Assembly (NCBI GenBank): GCA_013115125.1
Contig: JABANN010000006.1
Span: 124,001 to 176,688, forward strand
Length of the DNA: 52,688 nucleotides
From: Perkinsus olseni
Taxonomy: Eukaryota
Reading direction: 5' to 3'
Of this stretch, positions 15,383-18,796 are shown one piece after another. A program made the translations under genes and the position numbers. The notes beneath the pieces are model-generated. The model was given only the letters and a program-made list of their open reading frames with translations, ran no database searches and was not told where the DNA came from. The stretch's first letter is position 1. Each line of letters begins with the position of its first letter.

Positions 15383-18300
15383 CTACCCTCCCTTCACCAT
15401 CCTCAAATCACCAGTAACCACAAACTTCGGTAACCAGAGCAGCTCTTTGGAGCCCTCCTTGTGACCGAGGAAAAGATTCTTCGTCTCTTTCCTGAAGCCT
15501 CGCGCCATTTCTGTGCTCAGCAGAACCCCACTCTCCCTCCTACTTGCAGTGGAACCTATCCCCCCTCTTCATTCGAGCCACACCATCCTCGTCGTGGTCG
15601 TAGTCGATCGCAGCGGTGACCACACCATTGTACTGCCTCACGTCCTGGCCCTCACTAGCTGATGGCGCTGTGGACTCGGTACAGATGCTGGAGGGGTAAC
15701 CAGCCTCTGCAGCCTGCGATGCTGATGCTACCGCTGGAGGCTGCTGTGGGGCGGTAGGCTCTGAGGTAGAATGGCGATCTCAGTCGGTGGGAAAATGCCA
15801 GGTAGTGTAGAGGTGCTAGGAAACGGAACAGAGATCGAGTTACTCTTGATGGCATCCTTTGGCTTCTTCTTTGAGGACTCCGTTTCTTCGACCCTCCTGT
15901 TGCCAGGCCCTTCCGGAGACCGCTGAGCTACTGCTGCTCGAGGCTCGACTTCAGCTGTCTCCCGACGAGGCCGGCTGGACTCCGACGTCCCCTCCGAGGA
16001 CGGTAACTGCATAGATGACCCCAAAGAATGCGCGCGACAGACTGCTATATCAGCGCGGAGACCGAGCTACTCACAGCGGGTTGGAACATAGTGCAGTCCC
16101 CATGCAACTTCCTGAACCGCTGTTGTTGCCAGGATACATCAAAACGACGATTGCGAGCCTCTCGGATTTTCCTGCGAAGAGCAACGGTGACAGGCGAGCT
16201 GCGATGGACATGGCATCCAGAGCGCAACGCCAGAAGCTCACGCTCGTTGCACTCGGACGACTTCTGGCCCTTCCTTGTCTACTATGAAATCCCAAAAGGG
16301 GTCGCTGGCGGGCAACAGGGCCGCGATCTCGCCCGGTATACCACACATTATAGAGCTCAGCATGCACATCATCGACTGAGAAGGGGAGCAGCAGCAGCAG
16401 CCATGTGAATAGAAGAAAGCATCGAAGCCATCGGAGCCAGACGTAGGAGGGCAAAAACGGGGAAACTATCGACTACCTACCTGAGCCCAGACCTCCTTAG
16501 ATTGAACTGACGTCCACGCGCCCCCGATGTCCAGTACCAAGCCTCCCTTATCCATAAAGTTCGGTCGATATCGGAACTTGCCGACCTGCCAACATACGAT
16601 AAAGCACAGTCCTTTAATTAACCACCTCACCTCTTCGACAACAGCATCCCCCCACCAGAGCATGAGATTATCCACAAAGTCGTCTCGACTCCACGATACA
16701 CCAGGGATGCATTCACCACCACACCACATGCCGTTGGTCCTATGATACTCACCAGCGTTGTACCACTGCAGTTCCAGGAGGGCGTCGTTCTCCTGCTGGA
16801 ACCTGCTCATCACACGGATCAAGTCGACCCACACCCGCAGTGAGGCCCACAGCTGCGCCATGAAGGTGTCGTCTCTGTTGTTGTCGTCGTCATACGCTCG
16901 GGAGTCCCTCCACTTGCCGCTATCGCCAGGCTTTCCTGCACGACAGCTGCATGTATAACACCTGGGCCGCTCACACTACCATTGGGAGCCTCAGGCGGGG
17001 GCATGTTCTTATTCCAGCCAACATACTCCCAGAAGATATCAAATTGAGGAGCATTCTGGGCAACCATCCGAGCGTTGGGTATACCAGCAGCAATGGCGGC
17101 GAGGATCGGCATCACCGCTCGGCACAGCGCCGGGGACCCGATACCTAGCACAACAACACTGCTCATATAGAGTCAACATAAACAAAGCGGTATACTCAAA
17201 GCCTCATCGGATCATGACCAACAGTTCCCCACAAAATGCTGGAATGACCGGCGTCTTGCAAGCAGGCAAGAGTTGTAAGAAAACGGCTCCCACTCTCTCA
17301 CATGCCACGGCCTTATGAGTCTCATCTGCTATATAAACCCCTCCCTTGTCTCCTTGATATCGAGAGTCGTGATAGTTCCTTCGAGCCACTGCACAGAACC
17401 TCGGCCTCCACCTCGTTCCCAGTCTGTCCAGGACTGCATCCGGCCAGATCTGAGTGCAGTACCTACGGCCCGGTCCTCGGTGAGCCAAGCGCTCCCGCTA
17501 CCAACCGACACTCGAACCAGAATTGAAGGCAACACCCGCTGGGCTGCTCACCATAAGAGATTGCCTGTGGTAACGTGAAGGCCAAAGTCAAGCTCGGCTC
17601 GGATGTAGGACTCTCCTCTGTACGACTGACGAATCTTGTCGAACATCACTTCGTACCTTGGAATGGCCGGTAAAAAGTCGGGACCATAACGAGACAAACA
17701 GCAACTCGAAGGCTCCGCTTCAACGACTTACTGCAGCTGGGCTTCTCGACCCTCAATATCCTTCCAATCAGGTCGCCGAATCTCCATATCCTTCCTGGCA
17801 TACTCAACCTACCCTTGGAAGCCCGTCTCCACCACCACGGCCACACAACTCTCCCCACCTGCGCTCGGCACCTCTCCGTCCACATCGCTTGTGTGTAGTT
17901 CTTCACTGCTATTGACGTCGTTGCCGTGTCATCCTGATAGTACCCTCGGTACCTCAATAGGAGACACACCGTGACACCGTCAGGCCGTCGCCCCGACGTA
18001 CTTCGAGTTCTTTCCTTTCTCCAAGGGTTCCCTCTTTATCCTTGTAGCTGGTGGTCTATCACGAATCTGAGTCCACCATGTCAACCAATACCAGCCTCCA
18101 CGCTGCCACTCACTATCCCAAGCTTCTCGAGCCAGTCCCACCACATGCTCGCCGCGGGGCATACCATAGCGACCTGATGGAGCAGGAGTGGCGTCCAGGG
18201 GCGGAAGGCGACACACCTGTGCCGGTATCTGCAATGCGAAGCCTGCTCCAATGACCCCCATGGCTCTGACGCTCTCAACTCTTCCTTGTATCTTGATACC

Positions 18301-18796
18301 ATATGCGCCGCTGTTGTAGCCACTGAGCAGCATTATGCCCGACCGGTCCGGTTGCCAGCTGCCGTAACCTGCCAGGGGTAAGCCGCACTTAAACGCGGAG
18401 CGAAGGCGAGGCAAACGCCGCGAAAGTCACGAAGACACTACTGCGAGATGGGGAGAAAAGGGAGGAGCTCTTTGATTTCGACGTGAATGCTGGGCTGACC
18501 TCCAGAGTCAGTGGGAGTGCCTATCTCCGGCCTCCAGCCGTCCTCGAATTTATCCCTCTCCTTGTTATACCACATATTGCAGTATTCAATAAGATCATCA
18601 TCAGACACGTTACGAGTACTAGCATTCTGTATCTCAAACGACAAGTACCTACGAATGATACGAGGGAAGAGCAGCGGTAACAACAACAGAATAAGCAACA
18701 GGAGTAGTGTTACCGCCCCTGGCTGTGGGCGTTCTTCTGCTGAGACCTCTCCAAGGCATCAGTCAAGGCTTCATTGGCCTTCTCATTGTATGCCAT
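15383..18796 (-). CDS. Uncharacterised triple-repeat / SH3-like / C-terminal GG protein, paralog 3
   Basis: Start MAYNEKANEALTDALERSQQK. Homologous exons throughout. The spliced end is VTAAIDYDHDEDGVARMKRGDRFHCK-KETKNLFLGHKEGSKELLWLPKFVVTGDLRMVKGG* (TAG 15383-15385). Confidence 0.85.

Follow-up and report, generated by a model that had tools for sequence, protein, structure and literature searches.

Three tandem genes of Perkinsus olseni encoding proteins with three diverged copies of an undescribed, probably TBP-like domain and an SH3-like end

Introduction

What are the proteins encoded by three adjacent, unnamed genes of the shellfish parasite Perkinsus olseni, and what might they do? The genes lie in a 52,688 nt stretch of intron-rich eukaryotic DNA (contig JABANN010000006.1, positions 124,001 to 176,688; hereafter the window), head to tail on the minus strand in the order paralog 3 (15383..18796; 730 amino acids, aa), paralog 2 (11992..15222; 690 aa) and paralog 1 (8510..11667; 710 aa). 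The original prediction, made from the DNA by eye, was that each protein is built from three diverged copies of an unrecognised, Trp-rich domain. The repeats prove to be real, and the proteins represent an undescribed domain family, probably of a known fold, in an unreported architecture.

The repeat unit

All nine motif blocks of the original prediction were located in the claimed order in the spliced model of paralog 3, and the same triplet of blocks is present in paralogs 1 and 2. The unit is longer than had been noted (about 125–145 aa), as a long helix and a strand precede the first block, and the proposed range of 16280..18640 falls short of the start of unit 1, at 18787. Using a hidden Markov model (HMM) of the unit, the three copies in paralog 3 were placed at 18120..18787 (aa 4–146), 17005..17745 (aa 223–362) and 16271..16795 (aa 402–526), and those of paralog 2 at 14645..15213 (aa 4–145), 13348..13846 (aa 228–361) and 12679..13136 (aa 401–523). 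In paralog 1, for which there is also a fold model, they occupy 10946..11658 (aa 4–144), 10017..10579 (aa 221–361) and 9337..9803 (aa 401–526); all are on the minus strand.

The copies are so diverged that a BLASTP self-comparison gave no off-diagonal match at E<10, yet profile comparisons were far above their controls. With six Perkinsus sequences, HHalign scored the unit pairs at 34, 35 and 49, and shuffles (60 each) peaked at about 21.5. With a 39-sequence alignment they matched at 98.2–98.7% probability over 118–133 columns (E 4e-16 to 5e-14), and scores of 90–104 compare with at most 18.4 for shuffled (25 each) and 19.6 for reversed profiles. Profiles made from environmental relatives only and lacking one unit class recovered that class in nine of nine cases across the three paralogs (34–44 bits), all profile rows being drawn from one joint alignment. 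A chance or compositional likeness of Trp/Gly-rich motifs, with which the blank BLASTP result would agree, is refuted by the shuffled, reversed and held-out tests and by the common element order of the units in the structure model, and has a virtually negligible probability. The description as Trp-rich holds for composition (3.7–4.3% of the core), but just one or two Trp positions are common across units.

No match, and no credible name for the family, was found in Pfam, PHROGs, NCBIfam or PDB sequences, in agreement with an unnamed domain. Six locus tags of the family are absent from the literature searched, in which titles and the beginnings of abstracts held nothing on it; three P. marinus tags are absent from the examined supplements of a mitochondrial complexome paper, a search that could miss proteomic mentions.

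Predicted fold

The family is unnamed, but its predicted fold is already known. The modelled unit consists of a strand, a helix, four strands and a helix, with an additional N-terminal helix and a C-terminal helical hairpin. DSSP assignments of both models match the element order B1-H1-(B2)-B3-B4-B5-H2 of the TATA-binding protein (TBP) domain superfamily, as given in PMC10688271 and PMC3597702. There is moderate support for the units folding like half of TBP, in the TBP-like helix-grip manner.

Sequence profiles gave no match. Pfam found no TBP, AlkA_N, OGG_N or DUF3378 domain, and HHalign of the units to AlkA_N (18 sequences: 22 phylum-wide loci fetched, 9 dropped by an extraction filter, 5 enteric added) and to TBP was no better than shuffles; the TBP profile, from this genome, is shallow (only 2 sequences). 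This leaves room for membership of the superfamily, since even for TBP and glycosylase domains HHpred yields no match (PMC3597702). TBP, AlkA/OGG1, double-stranded RNA-binding domains (dsRBDs) and restriction-type nucleases were outside the best 50 fold matches, but those rows were filled by another domain and so exclude none of them. Viral structures gave no match at E≤0.001, and ESM Atlas no usable match.

Several specific assignments were rejected. The first guess by eye, a dsRBD (PF00035), disagrees with the model, which has five strands with one leading rather than alpha-beta-beta-beta-alpha; HHalign gave at most 0.2% to 29 bacterial RNase III dsRBDs (eukaryotic ones lay outside this comparison), and dsRBDs were not listed in the fold searches. 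AlkA_N, considered because its final two helices look alike, showed no similarity with the 18 sequences or with E. coli AlkA alone. TBP proper (PF00352) has internal repeats of the same predicted topology, but two adjacent ones instead of three with long spacers, and the Perkinsus core has neither a Pfam or profile match to it nor a basic DNA-binding saddle; separate TBP genes exist in this genome.

Among known structures, the five-stranded TBP-family second C-terminal domain (CTD2) of CPSF73 (PDB 8ba1) and CTD2 of IntS11/IntS9 are the nearest candidates for a likeness to the unit, with 3–6% identity where aligned structurally. The Perkinsus protein differs from CPSF73 in having no nuclease domain, in the extra N-terminal helix and C-terminal hairpin, and in belonging to a family with three or four copies per chain and an SH3 tail. 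A 2013 survey describes TBP domains as single-copy everywhere except in TBP itself (PMC3597702). Three or four TBP-like domains in one chain with an SH3 domain would be a new architecture. CPSF73 was reportedly shown, after that survey, to hold two TBP domains.

The SH3-like end and the linker

The original prediction did not mention the C-terminal domain, which is found at 15416..15620 in paralog 3 (aa 670–720, by alignment to the paralog 1 domain), 12025..12222 in paralog 2 (aa 630–680, by domain alignment) and 8549..8759 in paralog 1 (aa 647–698), again on the minus strand. It is modelled as a five-stranded barrel that superposes on SH3 domains, giving strong support for an atypical SH3 fold. 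Compared with SH3 domains of the DOCK2, Hck and Src type it lies below Pfam detection (no match to the canonical PxxP-binding SH3, PF00018), and several PxxP-binding aromatics appear replaced, judged by eye against the SH3 consensus. In paralog 3 a Pro/Ser-rich, low-complexity linker (aa ~559–669) directly precedes it.

Gene models and splicing

Each gene model comprises 18 exons in an open frame, and all 17 intron phases are common to the three genes. Introns are GT-AG in 50 of 51 cases; the other (14744-14699, minus strand, paralog 2) is GC-AG, and GT-AG in the other two paralogs. By eye, the least certain splice sites are those in the low-complexity linker. At 408 nt (14114-14521), intron 5 of paralog 2 is longer than all the others (41–192 nt), and it contains two diverged direct copies of a sequence of about 115 nt (14189-14303 and 14321-14436, 71%).

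Splicing was checked with contigs from four public runs, the single one recorded as RNA spanning paralog 3 only. All 15 contig joints listed, out of 52, agree with modelled introns in position and length (13 in paralog 3, two in paralog 1), while paralog 2 is represented by exon-only pieces. A contig of run X1 covers 15138-15490 without a break, joining the final exon of paralog 3, across a spacer of 160 nt, to the first donor site of paralog 2. This is read-through or overlapping untranslated regions, and a contig is no proof of a single transcript. Perkinsozoa use spliced-leader trans-splicing (PMC9399869).

The three proteins are mutually 55–60% identical, and the closest named proteins are all labelled Perkinsus (P0001 and P0005, P. 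olseni; P0002, P0004 and P0055, P. marinus; P0003, P. chesapeaki). The paralog 1 model is 99% identical to annotated P0001, and the paralog 3 protein 80–88% to P0002, P0003 and P0005. No further copy of the family was found elsewhere in this genome.

Relatives and order of duplications

A profile search of 1.84 billion representatives returned 32 matches at E≤0.001, of which 17 are long unnamed proteins from ENA, JGI or Logan that each contain two or three units; the remainder are three partial relatives, P0002 and short pieces. Word-indexed homologue searches overlooked known members and are weak evidence of absence. Sixteen aligned environmental proteins are 28–32% identical to P0001. The most distant match, P0035 (E 2.7e-5), contains a single partial unit together with a Pro/Ser linker; its end looks SH3-like by eye, and it may mark a further lineage. 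Contigs from viruses, JGI metagenomes and prokaryote genomes yielded no loci, so the environmental relatives come without genomic context or taxon.

A tree was built from 64 units belonging to 22 proteins, and in it each of the three unit types forms a single clade (units 1, 2 and 3 with support 96/90, 100/98 and 100/97; ultrafast bootstrap 96–100). Every one of these clades is subdivided into Perkinsus and the environmental clades A and B. The program warns of long branches joining units 1 and 3, and the order among units was not interpreted. Because each unit clade spans Perkinsus and environmental proteins, and no intron positions are common to different units, the data support the predicted order of events: the internal triplication is older than all sampled proteins, and the gene triplication, with its 17 common intron phases, lies inside the Perkinsus branch. 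Each of paralogs 2 and 3 has its own counterpart in P. marinus (95% identity over 329 aa, to P0004, and 84%, respectively), and therefore at least the split between these two predates the species.

Possible function

The paralog proteins have no signal peptide and no clear membrane helix, and their core is neutral to acidic (pI 5.3–6.5; K+R ≤ D+E). Invariant residues are Gly, Pro, Ala and Trp/Phe with a few Arg, Lys, Gln, Asp and Glu, no His among them, and the sets vary by unit. Invariant R67, Q103, R105, R277 and R279 and near-invariant R460, K468 and Q483 lie in or beside strands 3–5. These features, together with the ordinary TBP genes elsewhere in the genome, fit a soluble multi-module scaffold better than either an enzyme or a DNA clamp of the TBP kind; the protein is probably a non-catalytic scaffold. 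Three TBP-like alpha/beta domains would make up a folded core some 550 aa long, presenting several binding surfaces through the invariant Arg, Lys, Gln and aromatics on or beside the strands, by analogy with the TBP-like C-terminal domains of CPSF73/CPSF100 and adaptin platform subdomains. The disordered linker would connect this core to the atypical SH3 domain, and the two would bring in further partners. We infer this functional account as a whole, and the binding is predicted.

A role of such a scaffold in small-RNA silencing or control of messenger ribonucleoproteins (mRNPs) is favoured tentatively, at somewhat less than even confidence, because clade B carries an Argonaute-hook-like linker in place of the Pro/Ser one. 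In six of ten clade-B relatives this linker is Trp-rich with Gly/Ser/Asn/Asp, and together the six contain 33 GW/WG dipeptides against 18.7 expected, an excess resembling WG/GW Argonaute-hook proteins (GW182, NRPE1, SPT5-like, Wag1p/CnjBp). Piwi-domain sequences occur on two contigs of this genome, the only other hint of a pathway. The main counterpoint is that the hook is missing from the Perkinsus proteins themselves (no GW/WG in five of five linkers). The folded domains also differ from those of known hook proteins, and the clade-B hook is putative; the clade-B terminal domain is SH3-like by eye, yet gave no significant alignment to the Perkinsus SH3 (0.26%).

Perkinsus branches close to the base of the dinoflagellates, a line in which genes are controlled mostly after transcription, and a lineage-restricted RNA-pathway scaffold would offer a handle on that control. 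A stronger version, a new kind of cofactor for small-RNA silencing or mRNPs in Perkinsus and uncultured relatives, with three or four tandem TBP-like domains, an SH3 domain and a WG/GW Argonaute-binding platform lost in Perkinsus, is unlikely; it would take a role held elsewhere by tandem-dsRBD or GW182-type proteins, with a fold hitherto unreported in that role in the literature searched.

An adaptor in membrane traffic or the cytoskeleton is a minor possibility. Adaptin/COP appendage platform subdomains and KA1 are interaction modules of the same broad fold class, which bind peptides or acidic lipids, and the SH3 domain and Pro-rich linker could couple to other adaptors. However, the matches to them fall on an extra domain of clade A that is absent in Perkinsus and shares no sequence signal with the units (HHalign 0.6%), the SH3 domain is the Pfam-invisible one with apparently altered aromatics, and the core is not basic. 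Even as a private adaptor, the family would merit a Pfam entry.

Direct DNA or RNA binding by paired units forming a TBP-like saddle, as in a lineage-specific transcription or trans-splicing factor, is quite doubtful. TBP and RNase HIII bind nucleic acid via the sheet of this fold (PMC3597702), and the conserved Arg, Lys and Gln lie in or beside strands 3–5, but the charge of the core, the ordinary TBP genes and the lack of similarity to the two-sequence TBP profile speak against it. An enzyme with a cryptic active site within or between units is improbable: polar residues are strongly conserved despite 28–32% identity, and unit 1 has invariant D83, Q103, R105 and E142, but the unit-specific sets lack a conserved His, and enzymes among the fold matches map to the unit solely through non-catalytic TBP-like domains. 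The residual probability goes to readings outside this list. The family is expressed, has a narrow known range and comprises at least three deep subfamilies, among which identity stays at about 30%.

Neighbouring genes and other loci

An open frame of 532 aa (19012-20610, minus strand) with ThiF and rhodanese domains (MOCS3/Uba4 type) lies on the strand of paralog 3 and ends 216 nt ahead of it. The adjoining locus tag in P. marinus bears the same label, which suggests that this gene order is conserved. Some prokaryotic MoeB homologues have a fused TBP domain, probably a coincidence with respect to the MOCS3-type neighbour.

Pfam matches elsewhere in the window are RCC1 repeats (23233-24519), a Cdc14-type phosphatase N-domain (29297-30157) and a subtilase (41923-43224) on the minus strand, and a PhyH dioxygenase (36917-37519) and a CD36 family member (38177-40642) on the plus strand. 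A tandem repeat at 26995-27212 (48-nt unit, 4.5 copies, 91% alike) lies within long open frames without a Pfam match, and (AGC)12 occurs at 21291-21326. The TBP-domain genes of this genome include three in tandem (G000:C2828:6153-10111) and a fourth, TBP-like locus on C2812.
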